Source of the DNA: an uncultured Planctomycetaceae bacterium
Lineage (GTDB): Bacteria > Planctomycetota > Planctomycetia > Planctomycetales > Planctomycetaceae
Assembly: GCA_963813715.1 (NCBI GenBank)
Contig: CAWFAK010000007.1
Span: forward strand, 672,001-736,000
Length of the DNA: 64,000 nucleotides
Reading direction: 5' to 3'
The translations under genes and the position numbers were made by a program. Numbering within the stretch: the first letter of the stretch is position 1; each line of letters starts with the position of its first letter. This document shows, in pieces, positions 321-56,873 of this stretch. The notes beneath the pieces are model-generated. The model was not told the DNA's origin. It saw only the letters and a list, made by a program, of their open reading frames with translations, and searched no databases.

Positions 321-1262
321 TCAGTATCGAAATTCACGATCCGTCGAATCCAAAAGACACCGACAGCTTCCGCGACGAGGACGGCCATCAGCAACGCGGA
401 CGATCCAGCAGAATCTGCGCGTACGTCGGTTGAGAAAAAACGCCACGAATGCCATCACCGGCAGGATCGAGAGCACGACGGCCTGCAGGCGGCCTTCGCT
501 CGTGCAGGCCTTGACTTTGCCAACCATCCGGATCCGCTTGCGAATGACATCCGACAGGTTGTCCAGAATTTCGACGGGTTGCCGCCCGCGTGCCGTGCAC
601 CAGCATGGCCACGACAAACAATTGCAATTCCATCACGCTGGTGCGCCGGGCCAACTCCTGCAAGGCGACTTCGTGCGACAAACCCAAGTTTTGCTGCTCG
701 CAGCAGCAGGCGAATTCCCCGAAAGCGGCGGCTTCAGTTGCGTGCGACCAGGGACATCGCGCCCGGCATCGTCTGCCCGGCCCTGACGGCGCGGCTCATG
801 AGCTCGAACGCTTCGGGAAGCTGCTGGCACAGCGTCTGGATCCGCGCTTGCGGCCGATGTGAACGTAGAACAGCGGCGCAGCGAACCCGCAATGCGGCCA
901 GCAAGCCGACCGGCCAGAGCCGCGTGAGCGTGAACCCCAGGACCGCCACCAGAGCCGCCGTCGCGGCAATCTGCAGGATTCGTTCCGGCTCGACCTGCAG
1001 GCCCGATTGCACGACCGTCGCCGACAAGCGCTGCCAGAACGGCGGCGCGGCGCGCCGTTTGCGCGTCGCAGAGACTTTGAGGTCCTTGAAAAGATCGGAT
1101 TTGCTGCGATCGTCCGTCCGCGTCGATTCCGAACTGGTCCCGGATCCGGTCGCGGATCCGCGCTTTTTCGCGCAGCACGAGATCGGAGATGATGGAGAAG
1201 ACCCCGACGACCGTCAGGGCGGCCGCCGCGAACGTCGCCAAATTGATGAGTTTCGGGTCCAT
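321..1262 (-). CDS. tadB: Tad pilus assembly protein TadB (T2SS-F family), split by several indels
   Basis: Fragments in three frames: N-terminal TM '[21 protein letters not shown]', '[18 protein letters not shown]', '[34 protein letters not shown]'. These are typical TadB motifs. Confidence 0.85.
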
Positions 1263-5333: not shown

Positions 5334-6710
5334 TCACCTCATCGCTTTACGCCTATCCATGGCCTTGTCGTGTTGGAGAATCCGGTACAGCGTGCGTCGA
5401 TGCATTCCGAGCTCTTGCCGCGGCCGCCTTGTTGCCACCGTGCCTCCGGACGATCTCACGCACGACATGTCCTTCGATCGATCGCAAGTTTCCACTGAGA
5501 GGCACCGTGATGGTGTCACAAGTTGGGAGTGAAGTGAGCACTGAGGTATAGCATGCAAAATACTATCGAAGTCATCTCCATCTTTTATTGAAAGAGCAAT
5601 TGCGACCACATTGCTAATTCGCCAACATTCCCGGGCCAATCGAACTGAAGCATTGCCTGCCACGTGTTCTCGGTAACCTTCCGGCGGAAGGTTCCCGAAT
5701 CTGAGTATGCCGCCGGCAAAATCGCTCGAGAAAATGATGGACGATCGCCCGGATGTCATCCGGGCGTTCACGGAGCGGAGCGATGCTCAGCCGAGTCAAA
5801 CGTCACGCAGTCATGAGCCCACGATACAAGCCCCCTCCCGCAAGGGCGGCATCCAAACTTATGTCGGTGGCGGCAATCACTCGAACCGGAAGACCGCTGG
5901 GATCACGAGCACCCGCTGCGGAAATGCACGCCGCTTCAACCATTTCGAGAAGCTGCTCTGCCCCAAATGGCAGCTCGGCAATCTGGTCAAAGTAGAGAGT
6001 GCATCGGGGCATCGAAGGCTGAGAGGCAGCCGTCGCTCGAAGGCGGACCGACTTCCGCCAGTGAACGGGTTCCGAGCCGGGACGGGCCTCTTGCAGCTCA
6101 GCACACGCGAAACGAATGAACGAAGCGTCTGCCTTCGCATCTCTGCGATCGATCCATCGCGGGATCAACTGCTTGCCGACGCCGGCTTCTCCTTCGATGC
6201 AGATCGGCAATGCGCTTCGGCAAGTTGTTCGGCGTCCTTGAACGCCGTACGCATCTGCAGCTGACCATGACGTCGTCGTCCAAGGACAACAACGGATTAG
6301 CTCCCTCTGTCTGGCGATCCATGTCGAGTGGCCGTTTAATCGGCTTCTCGGACGGCACAATGGCGCAGCAAGAAGACTCTGACTACTGATTGGTTTGACG
6401 ACGTAATCGCGGACGCCATGCCGCATCGCCTCCACGGCGGAATCGAGGGTTCCGAAGCCGGTGATGACGATCGCCGCGAGATCGGGCTGGATTCGAAGCG
6501 AAGACTCAATCAGGTCGAGACCGTTCGATCCGTGCAGGTGCAAATCCGTGAGTAGAACGTCGAACGACTCCGATTTCAAAATCTGAAGCGCAGGTCGCGC
6601 AGGCGCATCGCGCAGCGAAACTTGGCGACGCAGGCGCTCAGCACCGCTTCGACAAAACGACAAATCTGGATCTCGTCATCGACGACGAGGACCCTGGATC
6701 CCTGCTGCAT
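5334..6710 (-). CDS. NtrC/Fis-family response regulator (REC + AAA+ + Fis HTH), frameshifted, no visible GAFTGA loop
   Basis: ATG at 6710 'MQQGSRVLVVDDE', 'FDVLLTDLHL', 'ITGFGTLDSAVEAMRHG', Walker A-like 'GEAGVGKQ', 'VRVIAAT', 'PLRERPDDI', HTH 'HGGNKAAAA..ELGMHRRTLYR'. Confidence 0.85.
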
Positions 6711-7044
6711 GCCCGGGCCCGATCAGAGACTTTTCAACTATACGCACAATTGAGAGGTGAAGCAACCGTCAGAATTGAGGTCGTTGAGTCGCGTGATCAT
6801 TCAACCTTAGACAATAACGTGGCTATTATAAACCTAATGCGACTGCCAGAAAATCGTAGACCAATCTTTGCTCAAGCGAGCTCCCTGCCAGAGACGGCTT
6901 TGAACGGACGCCTTTGTGATGGCTTGTTTGACTGAGGATGGCCGCATTTTGCCGCGGGGCGTAAAAGTTTGTTGAACGCGCCGACGCGTCTAGATTCAAG
7001 CAGACTTCCCTCTAACCAACGCTTCGGCGGCGGGAGGGCGACGG

Positions 7045-9346
7045 ATGACCGAATCCGATCGCGCCGAAACGGAATTCAACCGCAAGCGCGCCGAGGAGGA
7101 ATTGCGGCGGACGTGGGAGCTCCTCCGGGCCGTCGCCGACGAGGTGAGCGACGCGATTTTCGTCAAGGACCGAGGTGGCAAATACCTCGTGTTCAACAAG
7201 GCGGCCAGCCGTCTAACCGGTAAGTCGGCTGCGGAGGTGCTCGGGCGGGACGACACTGCGATCTTCGATCTCCACGACGCACGTCATGCAACGGGACCGC
7301 CGGGTCATGGAGGCCGGCGTCGCCGAGACGCAAGAGGAGGACCTGACTGCCGATGGCGTGGCCCGCACCTACCTGGCGACCAAGGCCCCCTATTACGACG
7401 AGCGTGGAAACGTCGGCGGCGTGATCGGTATCTCCCGCGACATCACCGACTGGAAGCGCGCCGAGGCGGTCCTGCGCGATCGGGAAGAACTCTACCGGTT
7501 ATTGACCGAAAAGGCGAACGACTTCATACGCCTGCACGATCTTACCGGCCGGAGCATCTATTGCAGCCCTTCGGTCGAGCGCCTCTACGGCCGTGTCCCA
7601 ATGACTCTCTTCGAGTTCCAACACCCTGACGATGCGGAGACCTGCCGGCGGTGGTGGGAGCACGTGTTGGCCGGAAGTGAGGAGCTATTGTACTGGCGTG
7701 TCCGTAGCAAGGATGGTACTTGGCAGTGGCTCAAAACGCAGGCGTCGATTGTGCCGTACCACGGGACGCCGCATGTGATGACTGTCTGCCACGATGTGAC
7801 CCTGCGGAAAGCGGCGCAAGACGCGTTAGGCCGAAGCGAGCGTCTCTTGCACCAGGTCTGAACGCAGTACCCGTGGGCGTTGTGGTCGTCGATCTGTCCG
7901 GGAACATCATCCTCGGCAACCCGGCCTCCCAGCGAGTCTGGGGGGGAATGATCACTGCCGGGTCCGAGCGTTACGCCAAGTCCAAGGGTTGGTGGCACGC
8001 CACGGGGAGGCCAATTGGGCCGGAAGAGTGGCCTTCGATGGCGGCCGTCACCACCGGGCAAGCCTCGGTCAAGCAGCTCATCGACATCGAGGCGTTCGAC
8101 GGCGTGCGGAAGGTCATCGAAAACTGGTCGGTCCCGATCCGGGCTGACGACGACAGCATCACCGGAGCGGTTGTGATCAACGAGGACGTCACCGACGTCT
8201 TGCGCCTCGAGGATCAGTTCCGGCAGGCCCAGAAGATGGAGGCGATCGGCCAGCTGGCCGGGGGCATGGCCCACGACTTCAACAACCTGCTCACGATCAT
8301 CAACGGTATCAGCGAATTAGTCCGAGCCAATTTCCGCCGGACGACCCGATCGCGAGACTGGCTCCTGGAGATCCGACAGGCCGGGCGAGCGAGCCGCGTC
8401 CCTGACCGGCCAACTCCTGGCATTCAGCCGCAAGCAAGTCGTGGAGCCGCAAGTGCTGAACCTAAACGCGTCGTCACCAACACGATGAAGATGCTGGGAC
8501 GGCTGATCGGAGAGGACGTCGAACTGAACACCGTGTTGGCCCCGAGCTGGGCGGGTGAGGGCCGAGCCGGGCCAGATCGAGCAAGTGATCTATCAACCTG
8601 GCCGTGAATGCGCGCGACGCCATGCCGCAGGGTGGCAAGCTGACCATCGAAACGGGCAACGCCGAACTGGATGAGACGTACACCGCAACCCACCCGGAGT
8701 CAGTTCGGGGCGGTATCGTCATGCTGGCAGTGAGCGACACAGGGTTGGCATGGAGAGGCGACCAAGGCCCACATGTTCGAGCCGTTCTTCACCACCAAAG
8801 GACCTGGCAAGGGCACGGGCCTCGGCCTGGCGACCGTCTACGGCATCGTCAAACAAGGCGCTGGTCATGTTGTCGTTTTCAGCGAACCGGGGAAGGGCAC
8901 TGCTTTCAAGATTTACCTTCCTCTCGTCGAAGAGGTCATTCCGTCGGGCAAGTCCGCGCGGACCTGCAAACCCCACCTCACGGCAACGAAACGATCCTCC
9001 TAGCAGAAGATGAACCAGCCGTTCGGGTGCTGGCTCGTCAGGTTTTGCAGATTTACGGCTACACGATCCTTGAAGCCGCCCAAGGTGAGATGTGCTTCAG
9101 ATTGCCGAGACATACAAGGGCACAATCCACCTGCTGGTGACGGACGTGGTCATGCCCGTAATGAGCGGTCGGCAGCTCGCCGAGTGCCTCGTTGCCATTC
9201 GACCCGGCATCAAGGTGTTGTACCTTTCGGGATACACCGATGACGCAGTGATTCGGCACGGGCTCTTGCAGGCGGAAACGGCCCTCCTTCAAAAGCCGTT
9301 CACCCCGAGTTCGCTTGCGTCAAAGGTGCGGGAAGTGCTGGATTAA
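7045..9346 (+). CDS. Hybrid multi-PAS sensor histidine kinase with C-terminal receiver (CckA-like architecture), frameshifted
   Basis: PAS segments, H-box '[23 protein letters not shown]', '[12 protein letters not shown]', '[18 protein letters not shown]', REC 'ILLAEDE', '[10 protein letters not shown]', 'LQKPF'. Stop TAA at 9344-9346. Confidence 0.92.
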
Positions 9347-46334: not shown

Positions 46335-47960
46335 TCACTTGGAGATTCGGAACAAGTCGTCCGAGGGCGTGTCGTTGAAGTCGACGTACATTCGCGTAGT
46401 CTTCGCCCGATTTCCCGAGACGTCACGGAGAATGACCGTTGGGTACCAGAAGCCGCGCGGCGACTGGTCGAAATCCTTGAATCCAACGTCGGGAGGCTTA
46501 GACGCAGCGGCGATTTGCTCCGCACCTGCCGACGGGTCGCGATAGACGATCTTGACCGCGACACTGCCCATGCTGGGATTCAGCCAGTATGTCGCGTCCA
46601 GTGCAATTGGCTTCCGAATGGTTGGATCCAAAGAAACGTCCACCTTGATTAATTCCTGATTGCCAACCGTTTGATGGTTAACCTCAAAGTGGCGGTCTAG
46701 TGCCCTGAAAGGGAAGGTTGGACGGCAACACAGCTCAGGAACGTTAAGAGTCTGCCCCAGGAAGTCCGCCTGAGAATCCTCTTTCACCGGAAAGATCTGA
46801 AGAGGTCCGTCGCTGGAGACCTTCTCTCCCCATGTAAAAACGCCGATGGTGTGACCATCGCAAATTGCGACGGGGCTAAATCGAAATTGTTTCTTGTTCG
46901 CATGCCAGGCCTTCAGCGCCTCGTTTTGGTCCACGGGCAAAACGAATTGCGCGTCTGCGGGCTTGACGTCGTCTATGCGCCACTTATTACCCCGGCGCAG
47001 CACCCGTTTCGGATCGCACCGACTCAACGGCCGAGGGGTATCGAATCTCGCGGTGACGGACAACGCTGAATAGTCGTCGAAGCCCTCCCGGCCTTCTTGC
47101 AGCGTTTGAGCAATGTCCGGCAATTCACCCGATTCATCGACGTCCCTCGCTTGGACCCCGACTGGAATCCCCAGCGACGATCGGTCCGCCAAGCCCTTGA
47201 TTGGGTAGTCGAAGTAGCAGGTCGTCGTGTGCGACGCGGCTTCAGTGATCGCAAGAGAATACGGCAGTGAAGACCGCTTATCGATCGTGAGAACGAGCGT
47301 GATTGCCCCACGGTCGGCGGGCCGCACGACAATCTGATATTCGTCGCAGGGTTTTCCGTCGATCATTTGGCTTTTCAGACTCCATCGCTCGATCCGCTCG
47401 TCCGGCAACAGCGACGGAGCAGAGGGAGATCGCCGAAATACCGCGGCTAGGTTTGATACGGACGAGAGTTCCTGCGTCAGTCGCGCGTTCCCTGGCCGAA
47501 CGGCACGGTAAAGGATTTTGCGCTTCTCGTCATAACGTAAGAACACATTGTTCGTGTAATCGAAGAGCAAAGCGGTCGTCGATAGCCTGCCTCCGATCAC
47601 GTCCAGACCCGGCGATACCCACAACTCGCCTTTTTCGACGTTGTCTCGCACGATGCGCGCGTGAATGCACGCTTGCGCACGGGCCCTCCGGATCGCAGAC
47701 GCCCAGGCCGGTTCGCTGTTGAAAAACCAAACGGTCCCCAAGACCACTGCCGATAGGCCAACCGCAAAGACTGATGCGAGCATGATTCGATGTTTCGAGC
47801 GCATGCGGAGGGGCTGGACAGCCACGGCCACGCTTAGCAGTCGACTCCGCAAATCTGCGGCGTACTCCGCCGACGGGCCGGACCGCACTCGGCTTTCGGA
47901 AAGCGCCGTCTTCAGCACTTCCATTTCCTCCGCGTCAAATTCGTCGGGCCGAGTGCTCAT
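46335..47960 (-). CDS. Putative anti-sigma factor: cytoplasmic N-terminus, one TM, LolA-like periplasmic region
   Basis: Start overlaps the ECF sigma stop. TM 'IMLASVFAVGLSAVVLGTVWFF'; 'IDGKPCDEYQI', 'FDYP', 'GFWYPTVI'. The fold call is inference. Confidence 0.65.
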   Translation of the reverse strand: MSTRPDEFDAEEMEVLKTALSESRVRSGPSAEYAADLRSRLLSVAVAVQPLRMRSKHRIMLASVFAVGLSAVVLGTVWFFNSEPAWASAIRRARAQACIHARIVRDNVEKGELWVSPGLDVIGGRLSTTALLFDYTNNVFLRYDEKRKILYRAVRPGNARLTQELSSVSNLAAVFRRSPSAPSLLPDERIERWSLKSQMIDGKPCDEYQIVVRPADRGAITLVLTIDKRSSLPYSLAITEAASHTTTCYFDYPIKGLADRSSLGIPVGVQARDVDESGELPDIAQTLQEGREGFDDYSALSVTARFDTPRPLSRCDPKRVLRRGNKWRIDDVKPADAQFVLPVDQNEALKAWHANKKQFRFSPVAICDGHTIGVFTWGEKVSSDGPLQIFPVKEDSQADFLGQTLNVPELCCRPTFPFRALDRHFEVNHQTVGNQELIKVDVSLDPTIRKPIALDATYWLNPSMGSVAVKIVYRDPSAGAEQIAAASKPPDVGFKDFDQSPRGFWYPTVILRDVSGNRAKTTRMYVDFNDTPSDDLFRISK

Positions 47961-48544
47961 AGGCGTGCACCCCCCTGTTGAGGTGCTGGTGCAAAATAAG
48001 GCCCCAGCAACGTCCGCAAGCGCGTCCGAGCGCGCGATAGCGACGACTCGACGGCTTTAGCCGTTGTTTTCATCGCCGTCGCTATCTCCTGAACCGAACG
48101 ACCATCGACATATTTCTGTCGCAGGACCACCTGGTGAGATTGTGGAATGGCCGTGAACGCCGCCCGCACGAGTTGCAATCGCTCGACACGCTCCATCACC
48201 TCTTGCGGAAGAAGGAGGGCGTCGTCAGCCAGTTCGATCGACTCCGCGTTCTCCGATACAAAGGCGCTCGACAAGCGGCGAAAATGCTGCGCCACTTGCA
48301 ATCTGGCAATGCCAAACAGCCAATCGCGCAACTCGCCTCTCGCAGGATCGAACCCTTTAATGCTGGAAATCGCCTGCAGCCAGACTTCCTGGTTCAGGTC
48401 CTCGCATAACGTCCTGTCGCCGTCCACGAGATGGCTGACGAAGGCGTAGATTTCGTTCAGATGCGCGTCATACAACGCCCTCCACGCTGCTCGATCGCGA
48501 CGTGCGAGCAATTGCAGAAACGCGTCATGCGACGAAGCTGGCAT
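47957..48544 (-). CDS. ECF RNA polymerase sigma factor
   Basis: 'AWRALYDAH', 'EDLNQEVWLQA', 'FDPARGELRDWLFGIAR', 'SVQEIATAMKTTAKAVESSLSRARTRLR'. Confidence 0.93.
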   Translation of the reverse strand: MPASSHDAFLQLLARRDRAAWRALYDAHLNEIYAFVSHLVDGDRTLCEDLNQEVWLQAISSIKGFDPARGELRDWLFGIARLQVAQHFRRLSSAFVSENAESIELADDALLLPQEVMERVERLQLVRAAFTAIPQSHQVVLRQKYVDGRSVQEIATAMKTTAKAVESSLSRARTRLRTLLGPYFAPAPQQGGARL

Positions 48545-48740: not shown

Positions 48741-50052
48741 CTAGCTGGGCGCCGGCGATCGTCGGCGACGCCACAAAAGTCCAGTCCCCAGGACGACCAG
48801 TGCCCCGGCATTAAGCAACAGCAAGTGGCGCCAGATGCCACGGCCACCTACTCCGGCAGGAAAGGGCTGTATTTCTCCATTGATAATCGGATTGGCCCGC
48901 GCGATTGCCTCGTCGAGCAAGTGTTCGCCGTGCGGAACGAAATAGGACCTATTGAGAATCAGATCCTGGACGTTAGTGCCGGGGGGGAAGTCGAGCTCGA
49001 AAACGTCATCCGGAACATTGTTGACGTTGATGTTCTCGATCGTAACGGTGTGCACCTCCGTCAGCATCCCCTGCGTATTCGCGGGCTCCAGCGATCCTGC
49101 AAAATCGAGCCGATAACACCGGTGCGGCAGCCAGATGGTGTCACCATATTGGCGCAAATCCTTGTTGGCATAGACGAACGCAAGCACGGGCATGCTGCTG
49201 AGGTTCCGCATTTGAAACCACAGCCGACGCCGCATCGCGAAGCCATTCTCCGTATCGATCCAGATGGTGTCGGCCCCGTTCGTGACCACGTGACACGGAA
49301 AACCGTCGACCTCCTGGAGAGTCGGTAGCACTCGATAGACGGATGGCAAGCTCAGTGCGGTAGGCACGTACCAGGCCGACTCACGTTGTCGAGCTGCGTT
49401 GGCCCCCGTCGGAATTGAAATTGAGTCGAAGTACCACACCAGCCGTGAATCCACCGCGTCAAGTTTCGCTGGATGGATGTGGCCAAGCGAACGGGTTGGC
49501 TCGAAGGCTTTCATTTGCGTGCCATTGAAGGCGTAATCGAACTCCGGCAATGGCCTCGTTCGCCGCTTACTCGCTGAGTTCTCTGCAGTCTTAATCGCAA
49601 ATCGGCCGGGCGTGGTCTCGCGAATATGGGTGAACCGCTTCTCGCCCTTCATCGCGACGCGCGCTTTCGAACGAGAAGTTAGCGGGGACCGCATGCTTTT
49701 GTCGCTTTTGCGAAATCACACGAGCCGTTTCAACCTGCCTCTGTAATGAATATTGGAACGACACTTCGATACTCTCGACGCGGCCCGCCAAGCCATCTGG
49801 CCGTCGTAGAGTTCCTTTAGGGAATGCGTGGCTTTTCTGTTCGCTTGCCGCACGTTTTGCCATTCGAGGTGATCCAGCCCTCGTTGGACTTCTTCGTAAC
49901 TACCGACTTGTCCGGAAAGGCCGACGTATCGCGTCGGCGACTTCCAATCTTGCGCGTGCGGTGACAAACCCGTCCAACATGACCACCAGGACCCCCATGC
50001 CGCCAAGCTTGAGAATCCCCAACCATGCCAATCGTCTCGCCTCGACTCCCAT
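48741..50052 (-). CDS. Exported protein with a LolA/LppX-like beta region and C-terminal TM anchor with basic tail; frameshifted 5' part
   Basis: GGAGG SD then ATG at 50052 with a hydrophobic N-terminus; 'QEVDGFPCHVV', 'IWIDTENGFAMRR', 'IWLPHRC', 'VPDDVFELDFPPGTNVQD', end 'LLLLNAGALVVLGTGLLWRRRR'. Confidence 0.6.
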
Positions 50053-50158
50053 CGGCCCGCACTCCTCCAGGTTTCCGATTCGCTTTTTGGCGCACTGACA
50101 GACTTGTTCGCCTTCAACAGCCCGGTTGCAGTATTTCAGCGGACTCGCGAGGGCTTGG

Positions 50159-51373
50159 CTATTTCCGGTCGCGAGACGGTCTCATCCGCTCGTCGGAATT
50201 GCGCGCGACCTCTGCCAGAACGGTCGGGTGATCCGTCAACAAGGCCCGTTGGAGCACGCAGGCGGCGTGCGAATAAGCACAGTAGTCCCTTTGGATAGTC
50301 GTCGAGTCCGATCGCTTGAGCGCATCGATCAAAAACTGGAGGGCGTGCGAAACACAAACGCTCGATGGCCTCAAAGAAACGGGCACGATCTGGATCCACT
50401 CGAGCTGATGTCCGGTAATCCGCACCAGGTCCTCGCCGCGAATCGTCTCGGCGGCTCGGTTGTCCGTGACAGTCGAAACACGGTTCGCCCAAAGAGGACT
50501 CCAGGCGCCGTTGGGCAGCTGCGAGCTTTCGAGCAAGCGACTGGATCGCGACAAGTAGACCTCGCATCGTCGCCGGAGATCCGCCGAGATACTGCGGGAG
50601 GCGTGTCGCAATAGGAAGGCCAGCGTCAATTGCTTGTGAGTTCCTCCACAGGAACCGCTGTCGAGCGGCAGCGCAAGAATGGCCTCAGCCATCGATTCAT
50701 AGGAACAGGTCTCACCGAAGCGATTTTCCCACTGCGGTTCGTCCGGCAAATATCCGCAGAAGGCGACCAGCGACCAACAGACTTCCTGGCTCGCGTCAAA
50801 ACTGCGGCGCGACGCATCGAGGAGTTCGCCGACCGTAAACGAGCCGAAATTGCTCTCAACGGATAAGCCCAAAGGGACACCAATCTCCGCACACGTAGCG
50901 AGGAATTGGTCGACATGATGTTCGTACTCCCAGTGGTCCTGGACATTGGGGGCGGTGCGCTGCCTCACATCCCAGCCATAGGGGGAACGGAAGAACAAAG
51001 GCGGCGACCTGGGAAACGTTCGACGAAAGTCTGCCTGACCGAGCACGCGACCCACTTCGCGCTGCAATTCGAGGTTGGCTGGAAAGGCACCCGCCAGACC
51101 CTCGAAGCGCCAGCGGTGAAAGTAATCCGACGCTCGTAGCGGCTGAGTCACGACGTATTTGGTAATAGCCTCCGCAGCCGAGACCTTCACCTCGGCGGCG
51201 AAAATGGGATTCGGCGAGGGTGGAGCGATTTGCCCAAGTTCTGTCGGGCTCTTGGGAACTCCGGAAGGACCGAGCCACATTTTGACCCCTAGAGTCGCGG
51301 CGACTCCCACGACAGCCATAGCGACAACTAAAGATGCCACCCGGTTAGTGGTCCTCAACCTGTCGGAGATCAC
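50159..51373 (-). CDS. Membrane-anchored helical protein with His/Cys motifs (possible alpha/alpha-toroid enzyme)
   Basis: GTG at 51373 overlaps the upstream stop, GGAGG SD; N-terminal TM; 'HHVDQFL', 'SCGGTH', 'QLPNGAW', 'TGHQLEW', 'YCAYSHA'. Confidence 0.7.
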   Translation of the reverse strand: MISDRLRTTNRVASLVVAMAVVGVAATLGVKMWLGPSGVPKSPTELGQIAPPSPNPIFAAEVKVSAAEAITKYVVTQPLRASDYFHRWRFEGLAGAFPANLELQREVGRVLGQADFRRTFPRSPPLFFRSPYGWDVRQRTAPNVQDHWEYEHHVDQFLATCAEIGVPLGLSVESNFGSFTVGELLDASRRSFDASQEVCWSLVAFCGYLPDEPQWENRFGETCSYESMAEAILALPLDSGSCGGTHKQLTLAFLLRHASRSISADLRRRCEVYLSRSSRLLESSQLPNGAWSPLWANRVSTVTDNRAAETIRGEDLVRITGHQLEWIQIVPVSLRPSSVCVSHALQFLIDALKRSDSTTIQRDYCAYSHAACVLQRALLTDHPTVLAEVARNSDERMRPSRDRK

Positions 51374-52220
51374 GCGCGGTGACCTCCGGGCGCCGGATCC
51401 GCGGGCAGAATGGACACGCGGATTGGGTATGTTAAGACCTCGCCGTCGACCGTAACCCGGACCGGCAACAGAACGTCCTGCCGCTTTTGAGCGACGTTGT
51501 CCTGCGGATTGACTCCCAGCGTGAACGAGCACTCTCGTCGCACATAATTTGACGTTTCGACGGACGGCCCAACGCGGATGTCCTGGACGACGAGTACGGA
51601 TTCCAGTCCGGTCCCGCCCAGTGGCACATCAACCTTTGGCTCGCTCGAAGAGGCCTTGAGAAACAGGGTGCCGACGATCGACGCGGTTCGCGCGACCTTG
51701 GCACGGCCGCCGATCATGTACGTGTAGTTTGGAAAATTGGCGCCGAGTTCGATGGCGTGGACACTGAGCGCTTCCGCCCAGGACCCGCCCTCTGCCTCGA
51801 CGTAAACCCGTGCATCCGCCGGGCCGGCGTGGCGCGGCCTGGACCGCATCATCATATGCACACTGGTCGATGCGCCCGCGACGAGCGTCTCCTGTTCCAA
51901 GCGCGCTTCGGTGCACCGACAAGTCGGCGATCCGAGATGCAACCGAACCGTCGAGTTACCCTGATTTTCGATGCGGAAAAGCCCCTCGGCAGCGCCGTCA
52001 CGCGGCAACACACCAAGATCGGCTTCGGTATTCCACGCAACCAGCCGGAGTGCATCTGGCGATGGTGTTCTCGCGACGATTCTGTCAGCGGACGACGCCG
52101 ATCGTTGAACGGAGCGGCCGACATTCGCCGGCAGAGCCGAGCATCCCAATGTCAGACAGCTGACTAACAGACTGGCGAGCGATTGGCGCGGCGCCGCAAA
52201 AACGCAGGTCGATGGCAAAG
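51370..52220 (-). CDS. DUF1573 (Ig-like) domain protein; start uncertain, possibly the frameshifted C-terminus of the C39 gene
   Basis: 'DLGVL...FRIENQGNSTVRL..GSPTCRCTEA..LVAGASTSV', a DUF1573-like CxC pattern. Preceded by lipobox-like 'CLTLGC'. Confidence 0.65.
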
Positions 52221-52853
52221 CGCCCAACGTGCGAGCGGAAAGCCGCCAATCGACACCGACGCTGCGATGACACACCACAGAGCGACTTCCAACCTGCGAT
52301 GCGAAGACATCTTGCGCGATTCGGGCAAGATCAGATAACCACTCCAACAGCGGACGAATTGACTGCGAGACACCGTTTCGATCGAAGCGGCATAGTTCGG
52401 TTCGATGTAGCGCACTGAACGGTCATCAATCTGCAGCACGAGCAGGAAGTGCCCGATGGCATTGTTGGTTTCGCGACGGGGCAAGACGTGCGCGATTAGT
52501 GGAGTGGCGAAATGATCGAGATCCCGCGGTTTCGCTCGCAAAACCGTTGCCGAAACCCCCAGTGCCGCTAATCCCTCTTGTAGGCCAAGCAAGGAACTCC
52601 CGCCTTTTTCGATCGGAATAGCGGCAACGGCGTCGTCGTAGGTGATTTCGCTACCAAGAAGGCGTGCCAGCATATAACCGCAGGCCACGCCGCAGCTTTG
52701 GGCTTCGCGCCAATGGTGATTATGCGCTGCCCCCCGTGCATCGACCTGACGAGAACCGCCAGTACTCGCCTCTCCGTGAGTTCGAATGAAGGTGATTGCA
52801 CTTGCGACGATTGCAATCAGAGCCCAGCGGCGATGGAAGGTCGTAGAAAGCAT
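52164..52853 (-). CDS. Stand-alone exported C39-family cysteine peptidase (no ABC transporter domain)
   Basis: Signal/TM 'RRWALIAIVASAI', 'QSCGVAC' (Gln and catalytic Cys), 'GSSLLGL', 'PLIAHV', 'GHFLLV' (His), 'IEP', 'FVRCWSGYLI', C-terminal TM. Confidence 0.85.
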   Translation of the reverse strand: MLSTTFHRRWALIAIVASAITFIRTHGEASTGGSRQVDARGAAHNHHWREAQSCGVACGYMLARLLGSEITYDDAVAAIPIEKGGSSLLGLQEGLAALGVSATVLRAKPRDLDHFATPLIAHVLPRRETNNAIGHFLLVLQIDDRSVRYIEPNYAASIETVSRSQFVRCWSGYLILPESRKMSSHRRLEVALWCVIAASVSIGGFPLARWALCHRPAFLRRRANRSPVC

Positions 52854-52960
52854 GAGAGCGGCTCGGCGGCTAGGCAGACAGTATTTCTGAGGTCGGCTCT
52901 GGGCAATTCAATAACGCCGTTACCAACCAGCAAGCATGCCACGCGATATGGGGGACCTTC

Positions 52961-53407
52961 TCAAGTCCCACTGCATCCCTGTTGGTCGAGATCAAAAGGC
53001 GCCGGACCGCACTCGACACTTGAGGAATTCAGGCATTGGCAGCAAGGCATGATCACTCCCGTAACCGAGCAAAACGTTTCGGTGCAAGTTGCTTGCGTCG
53101 CCGAGTCACACGCGTCTTGCACCAACGCGCCAGTAAATGTCCCGGATCCGCCATAGCTCGAGGTGGCACCGCACGCATATGAACATAATCCGTCGCAGTC
53201 CGAAGTCGCAGATGTGCAGGTGTCAGTCGCAGAATCCGTGCAAGCGCTATTCGACGTCGATTGATACGAGCCACACTGCCCTCCGCGAATGCTCGCCGCG
53301 GTCGTGGCTGAAACCTCGACGACGTCCCCCGGCAATCGATCCGCTGACGGGAGAATGGCAAGGGCCGCAGATGCGAGGGCAAAGGCAAAGACTGAGACGC
53401 GAGACAT
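52961..53407 (-). CDS. Secreted Cys-rich precursor peptide with double-glycine leader (candidate RiPP/bacteriocin-like prepro-peptide)
   Basis: Strong SD (GAGGAG) before the ATG; signal peptide; 'EVSATTAASIRGG' then a 105-aa core with 14 Cys. Confidence 0.8.
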   Translation of the reverse strand: MSRVSVFAFALASAALAILPSADRLPGDVVEVSATTAASIRGGQCGSYQSTSNSACTDSATDTCTSATSDCDGLCSYACGATSSYGGSGTFTGALVQDACDSATQATCTETFCSVTGVIMPCCQCLNSSSVECGPAPFDLDQQGCSGT

Positions 53408-53919
53408 TTTTCTACTCCTCCAGAAACCGAAGTTCCTTACGGATCGTCAAATCTTGGAGCACGTAGGCAGTCCACTGACGCGGTAGCCACCGTTCAGCCG
53501 AGCGCAATGGCACGACGTTCGACGGTCGAGGCGTCAACGAAATCTCGGTTGGATCGGAACTCAGCTAATGATCCAGGCGTAGATCGCCCGGAGCATTGGT
53601 GATTCCTATTCCTGCGCAAAGGCCGCGCACGCTTTGCCGGCGCCTTGGACAAGGCTCGGCGGCACGAAGATGCGCTCATCCGAAAGAAGCAGCCCGCGGC
53701 GACGACCAACCAGGGTCGTTCGCGCCATTTCCGTCCAGCCATTGGTCCGGAACTGGGAACATCCTGATGCGATGATCTCGGAATGTCAAACAAAAACGAC
53801 AAAAAAATCGGGGAAGCTGGAAAGTTATCGAGCAATCATTTTCCACCCACCATCACGAGCGACGACCAACACTCCACTGGATTCCACGAGATGCCAATTG
53901 TTCGGAGAGCGTCTCCAAT

Positions 53920-54189
53920 CTACTGATCACCCGGATGAGTTGACCGCGCAACAACATCGACGATGTCGCCGATGGTGCGCAAACCGATCGCCTGTTCGTC
54001 CGAGATCTGCATCCGCCACCGGTTCTCCAGCTCGAACCGCAACTCGAGAAGATCCAAAGACGCCAGGCCAACGTCCTCGATGATGTGTGATCCTTCCGTG
54101 AGATCAGTGAGCTTGGCTCGACCGTTGGAGGCGAGAGCTAACGCCGGCTTCAGTTGCTCGATGATCCGACATCGTTCGTCTTCGCCCAT
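53920..54189 (-). CDS. Acyl carrier protein
   Basis: 'IIEDVGLASLDLLELRFELENRWRMQISDEQAIGLRTIGDIVDVV'. The phosphopantetheine Ser lies in ASL, a variant of DSL. Confidence 0.85.
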   Translation of the reverse strand: MGEDERCRIIEQLKPALALASNGRAKLTDLTEGSHIIEDVGLASLDLLELRFELENRWRMQISDEQAIGLRTIGDIVDVVARSTHPGDQ

Positions 54190-54343
54190 TGATGCAAATC
54201 CAGTCACAGATTAAGTTCCTGCCCGCGCGGTCGGGAACTCGTTCGAATGAGCCCGGTAGTATTCAAATCCTACCCCGCGCATAATTCAACGACCTCGCCT
54301 CGCTTGAAACTCGCCCCATCGTGGGACACGGCCACTCCTCGCC

Positions 54344-55768
54344 ATGCCGTTCAATTCCCTGGTTTTCCTCCTGTTCTTCCTGATCGTGGCACTCGTGCAC
54401 TCCCTGCCGCTGCCGGTGATCGTCCGCAAGCTTAACTTACTGATCGCGAGCTACGTGTTCTACGCGGCCTGGGACGTGCGCTATCCCCTGCTGTTGGCCT
54501 TCTCCACGCTGGTGAACTTTGGTGCCGCCGCTCTCATTCAAAATTGCGAAGGAAAGACTCAGACACGGCGCACGGTGCTGTGGATCAGCGTGCTTTTAAA
54601 CTTCGGTCTGCTGGCCTGCTTTAAGTATGGCAATGAGTTTCTCTCGGCCTGGGGACTGCTGGCAGACCGACTGCGAATCGCTGAACCTCCGCAGGTTACG
54701 ATTCTGCTGCCAATCGGACTGTCGTTCTTCACGTTTCAGGCCATGTCCTACACGATTGACGTCTATCGCCGCCAATTCCGACCGACGTCGTTGTTGGACC
54801 TGGCGATCTTTGGCTCGTTCTTCCCCGTGCTCCTGGCCGGGCCGATTTTGCGAGCCGGGCAGTTCATTCCGCAGTGCACCCCGCCGCGACGGGCCACGGG
54901 TCGTGAGTTCTGCTGGGGACTCTCGCTGCTCACCCTGGGCCTGTTCTTGAAGGTCACGCTAGCCGATCATTTGCTTGCGCCGATCGCACAACAGGTGTAC
55001 GACCTCAGTCTGCGACCCGACACGCTCAGCTCCTGGACAGGCACACTGGTCTTCGCGGCTCAGGACTATTGCGACTTCGCGGGCTATTCGACGTGTGCGA
55101 TGGGCATTGGCCTATGCCTTGGCTTCGTGCTGCCGGCCAACTTCCGCTCCCCATTGGCATCGATCGGCTTTCGCGATGTATGGCAGCGCTGGCATATCAC
55201 GCTCGTCGTCTGGATGCGCGACTATGTCTTCAATCCTCTAGGCGGCGTCTTCAAAGGATATGCCCGCGCCGCACTCAATGTGATAATCGTGATGCTCCTC
55301 ATCGGAGTTTGGCACGGCGCGACGGCCACCTTTTTGATCTTTGGCTTTCTGCACGGATCGTTCTTGATCGGCGAGACATTGCTGCAACGTACGCGGCTGC
55401 GTCGACTGCCTGTCTGGGCAACGCCGTTCGGGAAGTTCGTCCTCTGGGCGGTCACTATCATGCTGTGCCTGGTCGCGTTCGTCTTCTATCGGGCGGCCAA
55501 CCTCGAGCAGGCTCGTTGGATATTGGCGTCCATGGCCGGCTTCCCCAGCGGTGTCGGGAGCTTCGGCCTGACGGATCACGATCTGTTGATCGGACTCGTC
55601 ACTGTCGAGTGTCTGATCGTCGCCCACTGGGTCGTGCGCAACCAGAATCTCGAAACGGCCGTCGCACGCATCCCTTGGTGGAGCGTTTCGTTCGGACTCG
55701 CGGCGATGTTGGTGGCCATCACACTGAGTTCGGGCGAATCGCAGACCTTTTTGTATTTTCAGTTCTGA
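54344..55768 (+). CDS. MBOAT family O-acyltransferase (AlgI/DltB-like)
   Basis: 'FNSLVFL', 'LPIGLSFFTFQAMSYTIDVYR', 'FFPVLLAGPI', 'YCDFAGYS', 'WQRWHITL..WMRDY', 'GVWHGA', end 'FLYFQF'. Confidence 0.95.
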   Translation: MPFNSLVFLLFFLIVALVHSLPLPVIVRKLNLLIASYVFYAAWDVRYPLLLAFSTLVNFGAAALIQNCEGKTQTRRTVLWISVLLNFGLLACFKYGNEFLSAWGLLADRLRIAEPPQVTILLPIGLSFFTFQAMSYTIDVYRRQFRPTSLLDLAIFGSFFPVLLAGPILRAGQFIPQCTPPRRATGREFCWGLSLLTLGLFLKVTLADHLLAPIAQQVYDLSLRPDTLSSWTGTLVFAAQDYCDFAGYSTCAMGIGLCLGFVLPANFRSPLASIGFRDVWQRWHITLVVWMRDYVFNPLGGVFKGYARAALNVIIVMLLIGVWHGATATFLIFGFLHGSFLIGETLLQRTRLRRLPVWATPFGKFVLWAVTIMLCLVAFVFYRAANLEQARWILASMAGFPSGVGSFGLTDHDLLIGLVTVECLIVAHWVVRNQNLETAVARIPWWSVSFGLAAMLVAITLSSGESQTFLYFQF

Positions 55769-55810: not shown

Positions 55811-56873
55811 ATGAGTTCATCCGCAACGACGCCCGGGACAACTCCGACCACGCCGTCCGGCACGGCGCGCGAGGACACGTCGCGACGGTTGCCGGAAGCG
55901 CGGGTCTACCTCTTGGGTCTCGTACTGTTCGTCGGGATGATCGGTGCGCTGGAGGTATACTGGCGGGGACGAGCGTTCGAACCCAACGTTCCGGATTCCC
56001 CGGACCTGTGGGCCTATCACTGGTCCCGAGTCGTCGGCAACGATCCCAATCTGATCGTCGCCATCGGCACGTCGCGCATTCGCACCGCTGTGCGGCCGGA
56101 CGTGATTCAGGAGCGTCTCCCTTCCCAACGACTAATTCAACTGGGAGTGAACGGGCCCTCCGGATCGCTCGGTCTACTGGCCGAAATCAGTCGCATTCCG
56201 CATTTCCGCGGTCTCGTTCTCTGCGACTTGCTTCCGCCCCTGATGGCACCCGAGCAAGGGCGTGAACAGGTCGCCATGGCTCGTAGGCCGAATACCACGG
56301 CACACACTTTGAATACCTACTTGCGTTCGTTGCTGTGTGACCGACTGGTCGTCCTCAACTCGGCATTATCCGTTCGCAATTGGTTTGCACAGCGCGACTC
56401 GTTTCGTCCGGAGAGTGTCGGTCCGCGCCTGCGGGTCCACGCGGATCGGACTCTCGAGATTAGTTATCCCACGGACGAAGCGCTCGAAGACGATTCGTGA
56501 GAACCGTTTTCGCGACTACGCCGGCCGCTACTCAAAGGCCCGTCGTTACAAGAACATGGACGAATTCCGGGAAGCGATCCGCGACGTGGCCGACTCGGTG
56601 GCCCGCATAAAACAAAACGGCGGCAAGGTCGTGTTCTTGCGGTTACCAGCAGCCGGCGCCCGACTGCAACTCGAAGAAGCGACCTATCCTTCTGCGCTCT
56701 ATTTCGGGGTGTTGGCAGAAACAACTTCCGCGCCCTGGATCGACTTTCGCGAGCTCTCGCACGAAGACGATCTCGACTGCCCCGATGAGTCACATCTATC
56801 CGCGGACTCCGCCCCGGTCTTTACAAGTCGCCTCGTCGAAAGGCTGCGCCGCGGCTCGCTCCTGGGCCAATAG
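55811..56873 (+). CDS. Membrane-anchored SGNH-like acyltransferase partner (AlgJ/DltD-like), frameshift near 56497
   Basis: N-terminal TM, 'IGTSRI' block I, 'QLGVNG', C-terminal 'DESHL' (DxxH). Directly follows the MBOAT gene. Confidence 0.7.

Follow-up and report, generated by a model that had tools for sequence, protein, structure and literature searches.

Within a 64,000-nucleotide stretch of DNA from an uncultured Planctomycetaceae bacterium (the window; contig CAWFAK010000007.1, positions 672,001 to 736,000), we found a gene for a 148-residue precursor in which a predicted Sec-type N-terminal segment is followed by a double-glycine-type leader and a Cys-rich core, with a C39 peptidase fused to a DUF1573 domain encoded just downstream. 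In the textbook arrangement, double-glycine leaders and C39 peptidases go together with ATP-binding cassette (ABC) exporters, and cleavage takes place in the cytoplasm. Judging from the sequences, this known pair of leader and protease probably works outside the cytoplasm here, and without an ABC exporter. We think it fairly probable that the precursor is exported by the Sec pathway, that its propeptide is recognized in the periplasm by the membrane-held C39 peptidase and that a cut after Gly43 frees a disulfide-rich domain. The precursor system is well supported in silico: its architecture, conservation and gene linkage, and an intact catalytic Cys and His in the peptidase, were all observed directly. 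The parts of the precursor gene are as follows, in window positions.

52961..53407, minus strand: precursor open reading frame (ORF), 148 amino acids (aa), intact, read from sequence
53415..53421, minus strand: Shine-Dalgarno sequence GGAGGAG, 7 nucleotides (nt) ahead of the ATG, read from sequence
53342..53407, minus strand: residues 1-22, predicted Sec-type signal peptide or signal anchor (Arg3 and hydrophobic residues 4-22)
53279..53341, minus strand: residues 23-43, propeptide with the double-glycine-type leader VSATTAASIRGG at its end, GG codons at 53279-53284
52961..53278, minus strand: residues 44-148 and stop, Cys-rich core with 14 Cys, of which 11 are invariant in the family and one nearly so

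The original prediction, made from the letters of this stretch, had described a 148-aa ORF with a strong Shine-Dalgarno sequence, and both are present. The 19 hydrophobic residues from 4 to 22, right after Arg3, have a Kyte-Doolittle hydropathy of 2.03, and the sequence of residues 31-43 is EVSATTAASIRGG. The composition given for the 105-aa core was exact on recount (14 Cys, 17 Ser, 15 Thr, 10 Asp or Glu and no Lys, Arg or His), with Cys, Ser and Thr making up 44% of it. An internal near-repeat had also been noted in the core; the two strings exist, but 72 of 300 composition-matched shuffles equaled the best self-alignment score, so that the repeat is not significant, and only a C-x7-C spacing from it persists in distant family members. 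When a loose leader pattern behind a hydrophobic segment was run over the 45,270 six-frame ORFs of the genome (at least 60 aa), 15 matched, and the precursor alone among these has a Cys-rich sequence after the leader (14 Cys, with 0-5 in the others). In three studies, metatranscriptome libraries yielded contigs that cover the precursor ORF, and one RNA-library contig of 1575 nt spans its 3' part, the C39 region and the start of DUF1573. A promoter and terminator scan of positions 52700-54300 gave no promoter-like site and one terminator-like site, with 1.6 expected. The precursor ORF is a real, intact and conserved gene.

No Pfam or NCBIfam model matched the precursor ORF. Looking for known relatives, we found nothing meaningful with Pfam on all 29 members of the family alignment described below, and a profile of that alignment had no match to PDB sequences at E values up to 5. 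An AlphaFold2 structure of the precursor (24 sequences) reached a predicted local distance difference test (pLDDT) value of 34.7 and was unusable, and the ESM Atlas model was likewise poor (pLDDT 0.31), with no usable structural neighbor.

The precursor family is rare. A word-indexed search of 5.8 billion proteins returned 23 relatives, nearly all of about 148 aa and 50-94% identical over their full length, and among 1.84 billion cluster representatives an exhaustive profile search gave 16 at E values of 0.001 or lower, five of them at 1e-10 or lower. The precursor is present in 5 of the 12 genomes of its own soil planctomycete genus, with the source genome counted, and in none of 386 other genomes of the order; a sample of 400 genomes from the phylum gave a single marginal match (E 0.0054, with a TGA inside). 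DNA nearly identical to the window occurs in soil, rhizosphere and peat metagenome runs. From these sequences we built two alignments: A1, with 24 rows, and A2, with 29 rows (the precursor, 14 of the 23 near relatives and 14 of the 16 distant representatives), in which identity falls to 24%. Left out of A2 were the near-duplicates P0004, P0006, P0007 and P0013, the fragments or over-extended calls P0008, P0010, P0021, P0022 and P0023, and two distant representatives, P0026 (279 aa, over-extended) and P0034 (an 81-aa fragment), both of which show the GG by eye.

The only invariant columns of A2 are Gly42, Gly43, Ala55 and 11 Cys, with a twelfth Cys nearly invariant. The two glycines do not vary in any of the 24 rows of A1 or the 29 rows of A2, so that an absence of conservation at the GG, which had been named as a finding that would count against the original prediction, was not what we observed. 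Counted back from the end of the GG, the leader positions in A2 are as follows.

Position -12: Val, Leu or Ile in 29/29
Position -11: Ser or Thr in 19/29
Position -8: Glu in 18/29 and Asp in 2/29, with Thr in this precursor
Position -7: Ala in 27/29
Position -4: Ile, Val or Leu in 29/29
Positions -2 and -1: GG in 29/29

The double-glycine consensus is LSxxELxxIxGG, in which positions -4, -7 and -12 are hydrophobic and -8 is acidic. As aligned, the family leader profile is this consensus with Ala in place of Leu at -7. A hydrophobic N-terminal segment with Lys or Arg before it is found in 28 of the 29 rows and ends 19-44 residues ahead of the end of the GG; no conserved small-x-small site is evident in the family alignment. 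The family thus keeps the proposed signal-pro-core design: its GG never varies, and its leader profile fits the double-glycine consensus.

Behind the GG, the number of core Cys is even throughout (12 or 14 in 29/29 rows of A2), which fits six to seven predicted disulfides. A variable Cys-rich core had been expected; instead, both alignments show a domain of about 100 aa that is conserved along its whole length, without a variable region. The absence of positive charge that had been pointed out holds for the near clade, which fills rows 1-17 of A2 and has net charges of -5 to -11, and fails in the 12 distant rows, which range from +3 to -9 with up to 11 Lys, Arg or His. Since it is limited to the near clade, it is a poor guide to function.

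The peptidase gene begins 107 nt downstream of the precursor ORF, with the following features.

52164..52853, minus strand: C39 part, with an N-terminal hydrophobic anchor, the C39 domain (PF03412) and a second hydrophobic segment
52692-52694, 52449-52451 and 52401-52403, minus strand: Cys54, His135 and Glu151, respectively, aligned to the Cys, His and Asp of the PCAT1 triad
52185..52186, minus strand: one-base gap, a C missing from a short C run, which splits the C39-DUF1573 gene into two overlapping ORFs
51370..52184, minus strand: Arg-rich loop, third hydrophobic segment and DUF1573 Ig-like domain (PF07610 at 1e-07)
52141-52155, minus strand: lipobox-like LTLGC ending the third hydrophobic segment

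The PF03412 match scores 66.5 bits against a cut-off of 22 (E 2.7e-18) and the PF07610 match 32.3 bits against a cut-off of 26.1. In the window the two matches lie in ORFs that overlap by 184 nt in different frames, but comparison with relatives indicates that these are one gene split by the one-base gap. Both families are found on most of 40 peptidase homologs, the fused proteins being about 480-500 aa long; P0064, nearly identical to this peptidase, is a single protein of 494 aa; the gene reads through in one frame at all six metagenome loci; and all three public-run contigs that span the site (two from RNA libraries and one from DNA) carry an extra C after 52185, the contig of a fourth run stopping there. 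Two further genes are broken in the window and whole in relatives, one for a 448-aa protein (48741-50117, in three frames) and, upstream of the precursor, one for a 345-aa protein (55811-56873). The frame breaks in these three genes look like assembly indels rather than biology, because the assembly consists of only 18 contigs and has a marker completeness of 82.6%. When the peptidase is aligned with PCAT1, Cys54 and His135 fall on the catalytic Cys and His and Glu151 on the Asp; the three are invariant in 23 of 23 peptidase sequences.

Downstream of the precursor, a row of genes on the same strand encodes C39, DUF1573, a 457-aa membrane protein (the barrel protein below), a protein with terminal hydrophobic segments, an extracytoplasmic function (ECF) sigma factor and a single-pass protein, and this order is repeated in all four other genomes that carry the precursor. 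In the six metagenome loci C39-DUF1573 again directly follows the precursor, with the 457-aa protein next in the three loci that have enough flank. Linkage to C39 therefore holds in 10 of 10 other loci, which by their identities make up about six distinct lineages, all of them from the near clade of the precursor family; a scan with the distant member P0028 found no relative among metagenome contigs.

By hydropathy, the C39-DUF1573 fusion has three hydrophobic segments. The loop between predicted transmembrane segments 2 and 3 (TM2-TM3) contains 3-7 Lys and Arg against 0-2 Asp and Glu in 22/22 fused homologs, and the third segment ends in a lipobox-like x-G-C in the same proportion (alignment A3). 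Positive charges tend to stay inside, and lipoprotein processing takes place at the outer face of the membrane, so an Arg-rich loop followed by a lipobox-like end would place the loop in the cytoplasm and both the C39 domain and DUF1573 in the periplasm. The original prediction of an adjacent, stand-alone C39 outside the cytoplasm agrees with these hydrophobic segments, with the Arg-rich loop and with the lipobox-like x-G-C. The third segment, coming after the Arg-rich stretch, resembles an internal lipoprotein signal peptide, and lipoprotein signal peptidase may split the fusion into a membrane-bound C39 part and a lipidated DUF1573 part.

We found no C39-ABC transporter in the genome (82.6% complete), where PF03412 matches just two frames; at 247 and 289 aa both are under 300 aa, so neither is an ABC fusion. 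A transporter is also absent from the conserved gene row, as judged by Pfam scans and synteny. The sole other C39 gene of the genome, on another contig (L044 6633-7424), encodes a 263-aa protein with a signal peptide that keeps the canonical Gln, Cys, His and Asp-Pro positions. It directly follows a gene for a 538-aa protein resembling an outer-membrane barrel, and no ORF with a GG leader was noticed near it.

The same leader recurs on a different core elsewhere in the phylum. We searched the 400-genome sample with the peptidase and examined, with their flanks, seven of nine C39 matches outside ABC proteins, using a substrate filter (ORFs of up to 260 aa with at least four Cys and more than 5% Cys) that would miss Cys-poor substrates. 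The clearest case, L037, comes from another genus of the same family and is a 122-aa ORF with a signal, the leader residues Val, Ser, Glu, Ala, Ile and GG, and an 8-Cys core, located between a homolog of the barrel protein and a double-C39 protein. BLASTP similarity between it and the precursor covers residues 6-43 only and stops at the GG. Leader-guided processing predicts that one conserved leader will occur in front of unrelated cargo, and the nearly identical leader of L037, from a different genus and with an unrelated core, suggests that Sec-dependent processing of this kind forms a wider class in Planctomycetota that is so far undescribed. The peptidase at this locus (5891-7078, minus strand) contains a pair of C39 domains (two Pfam stretches), with a hydrophobic segment after each. 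A weaker case, L042, from another family, is a 161-aa ORF that has a hydrophobic segment, 14 Cys and a weaker leader with VFGG at its end. Its gene row also encodes a sigma factor, a C39 protein, a MauE-like protein and a candidate DUF1573-like protein, the last assigned by eye with no Pfam match. The MauE-like membrane protein (525-989, minus strand), which has a CGCFG motif and ends this gene row, may relate to disulfide handling. L038 is doubtful as a further case, and L039, L040, L041 and L043 showed no ORF combining a signal, a GG and a Cys-rich core under the filter.

When the C39 domain was paired with precursor residues 24-75 in a complex prediction, the score was 0.53, with the best of three controls at 0.00; at least 61% of contacts are shared between runs, and the partner has a pLDDT of 47 or higher. 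Of 157 solved complexes, 116 reach the mark used, as do 2 of 215 mismatched pairs, and at scores of 0.60 or lower only 18 of the 157 solved complexes passed, along with both of the passing mismatches. The prediction thus lends weak support to the pairing, and as solved C39-leader complexes exist, the pass may reflect likeness only.

Put together, the favored mechanism would run as follows. The Sec-type N-terminal segment would carry the prepro-protein across the cytoplasmic membrane, after which it would either be cleaved by signal peptidase I or be kept as an anchor until C39 frees the domain. The propeptide of about 20 residues, with its double-glycine leader, would be recognized on the periplasmic side by the C39 peptidase encoded downstream, a membrane-held enzyme whose fusion partner would be a lipoprotein domain, the Ig-like DUF1573. 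A cut after Gly43 would then free a 105-aa domain starting at Gln44, which would fold with six to seven disulfides. The cleavage site, the topology and the disulfides are all predicted from sequence features.

The nearest well-studied systems by leader and enzyme are those built on peptidase-containing ABC transporters (PCATs), of the PCAT1, ComA, CvaB and LahT type. The leaders here share with theirs the hydrophobic residues at -12 and -4, the GG at -2 and -1 and, in most members of our family, the Glu at -8; their peptidase is likewise a PF03412 protein with a catalytic Cys and His, PCAT1 chains being the best solved relatives of ours; and there, too, the same leader is found on unrelated cores. 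In contrast, the leader here follows a Sec-type hydrophobic segment instead of standing at the extreme N-terminus (28/29), and the peptidase is membrane-anchored, fused to DUF1573 without an ABC fusion and predicted to be periplasmic. The triad acid is Glu, position -7 of the leader is Ala, and the cargo is a conserved 105-aa Cys-rich domain. By sequence, the system departs from the PCAT family in two defining features: its leader lies behind a predicted Sec-type segment and is not N-terminal, and it has no cognate ABC transporter.

Broadly similar in outline, the periplasmic cysteine protease LapG of Pseudomonas cuts LapA at a short motif near its N-terminus and releases an exported protein. 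The protease belongs to another family, and LapG/LapA also differs in its di-alanine site, its giant adhesin cargo and its control by cyclic di-GMP via LapD. The nearest published precedent is FapD of the Pseudomonas Fap functional amyloid system, a C39 protein with a Sec signal that is active in the periplasm and needed for secretion (PMC5557850). Like the peptidase proposed here, FapD acts on Sec-exported proteins without an ABC partner, and the same text calls this class of C39 proteins uncharacterized, describes the target of FapD as unclear and gives the Fap proteins no canonical leader (PMC5557850). The cut site is unknown there, whereas here the candidate substrate has a near-canonical leader, and our peptidase is fused to DUF1573 and predicted to be polytopic. 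Among the neighbors, Pfam scans named no Fap-type component; no search with Fap sequences was made. Full-text searches, with subscription journals outside their coverage, turned up no account of a double-glycine leader placed behind a Sec signal or of a C39 domain with DUF1573. A near-canonical leader behind an export signal on a defined substrate, beside an apparently outward-facing peptidase, provides a concrete and testable cut site after Gly43.

Several observations weigh against this proposal. The leader has Ala at -7 instead of the classical Leu, and this precursor has Thr instead of Glu at -8. In the peptidase, the invariant Glu151 takes the place of the Asp in the PCAT1 triad, and an invariant Trp48 lies six residues before Cys54, where we take the oxyanion Gln of PCAT1-type enzymes to be; position -2 from Cys54 is Gln varying with Glu, and the HMMER alignment to PCAT1 stops short of the Gln position. 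The topology is a prediction from hydropathy, a lipobox-like motif and counts of charged residues, the score of the complex is weak and the fold of the partner in it uncertain, and the RNA-library support consists of assembled contigs at a depth of 1-7 that may stem from DNA carry-over. Only two to three of the seven other non-ABC C39 loci gave an ORF with signal, GG and Cys-rich core under the filter. One could accordingly read the precursor as an ordinary Sec-secreted, disulfide-rich protein in which the GG stretch is structural in the mature protein, with C39 cutting another product of the operon or itself. The deviations at the canonical acid and oxyanion positions would suit this, cleavage at the GG is predicted here from sequence, and the target of FapD, the only studied periplasmic C39, is unknown, perhaps with another recognition sequence (PMC5557850). 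We consider this reading unlikely, because the stretch ahead of the GG fits the leader profile at -12, -7, -4, -2 and -1 in 27-29 of 29 members, because the leader is shared with an unrelated core beside another C39 with the similarity ending exactly at the GG, and because the linkage to C39 was found in 10 of 10 other loci.

If the C39 domain instead faced the cytoplasm and cut there in the classical way, the hydrophobic N-terminus would be part of a long leader and export would fall to an unidentified transporter. All biochemically characterized PCAT-type cleavage of GG leaders is cytoplasmic, as the work on FapD also states (PMC5557850), and the topology of our peptidase is a prediction. 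This arrangement has a very small chance of being correct, given a genome without a C39-ABC fusion, a conserved row without a transporter, the loop and lipobox-like end that favor an outward C39 in 22/22 homologs each, and an Arg plus hydrophobic segment ahead of a domain with 12-14 Cys, which is a standard arrangement for export. We give a similarly slight chance to a core that is heavily modified in the manner of a ribosomally synthesized and post-translationally modified peptide (RiPP), for example by thioethers between Cys and Ser or Thr, with the barrel protein acting as a cyclase, or with a membrane-bound O-acyltransferase (MBOAT) and a carrier protein O-acylating the core. The high share of Cys, Ser and Thr in the core agrees with this, as do the invariant His152, Cys241, His245 and His319 of the barrel protein, which accompanies precursor and C39 in two genera, and an MBOAT gene adjoining the operon in four of about six lineages (this type, the 77% type, L010 and L011), two of them with an acyl carrier protein (ACP) match. 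A RiPP precursor would have a variable core and dedicated modifying enzymes, but the core here is conserved, its Cys count is even in 29/29, and Pfam and NCBIfam scans of the neighbors found no dehydratase, radical-SAM or other known RiPP enzyme. Neither an MBOAT nor a carrier protein is next to the L005/L050 and L012 loci, and the top 50 fold matches of the barrel protein include no lanthionine cyclase, which decides little. That the ORF might be a chance open frame, as its lack of a family annotation and of a confident fold could suggest, is for practical purposes refuted by conservation: full-length homologs at 50-94% identity keep the Cys positions, the Shine-Dalgarno sequence is strong, synteny is conserved and RNA-library contigs cover the ORF.

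For the released domain of the favored mechanism, an envelope or adhesion role is a tentative first choice and a ligand for the co-encoded ECF sigma pair a more doubtful one; we hold a bacteriocin to be unlikely and a metal binder quite improbable. An envelope protein or a signal is favored over a bacteriocin because the core is conserved and present in single copy, a sigma pair is linked to it, and no immunity-like gene stands out in the gene row. We also considered, as an improbable extension, that the whole of a leader-guided maturation takes place outside the cytoplasm: the propeptide would dock the core on the barrel protein and DUF1573 for modification or hand-over, C39 would make the cut, and the product would be the ligand for the ECF sigma and anti-sigma pair. 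If true, extracytoplasmic docking with sigma sensing would parallel, in the periplasm, the maturation of bacteriocins or RiPPs and couple it to self-signaling.

The remaining genes of the conserved row are as follows.

50159..51532, minus strand: membrane-anchored (alpha/alpha)6-barrel protein, 457 aa for the ORF as read, with the true start probably near 51350
48741..50117, minus strand: protein with hydrophobic segments at both termini, 448 aa in L005 and in three frames here
47957-48544, minus strand: ECF sigma factor (Sigma70_r2/r4 and TIGR02937 matches), syntenic in 4/4 genomes
46335-47960, minus strand: single-pass protein at the anti-sigma position, so labeled from its position and one hydrophobic segment

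The barrel protein is syntenic in 4/4 genomes, and its homolog flanks the GG precursor of L037 in another genus. It belongs to no Pfam family, and most of its relatives come from planctomycetes; invariant residues include His152, Cys241-Gly-Gly-x-His245, His319 and Glu322 (P0080 numbering). AlphaFold2 predicts an (alpha/alpha)6 barrel at pLDDT 77, and the best VIA-align match of this model is the GH105 chain 4xuv_B (Z 17.3, root-mean-square deviation 3.3 over 260 residues), followed closely by terpene cyclases, GH88 and thioester domains; Foldseek found no match in the PDB at E values up to 0.001. The predicted fold gives no function. No homology was found between the second membrane protein and the protein at the anti-sigma position (best E 0.40). 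Directly upstream of the precursor, an acyl-carrier-like protein is encoded on the same strand (53920-54207, minus), and divergent from it lies the gene of a DltB-like MBOAT acyltransferase (54344-55768, plus). From their position, a link of the acyltransferase and carrier protein to a Ser- and Thr-rich secreted protein is possible.

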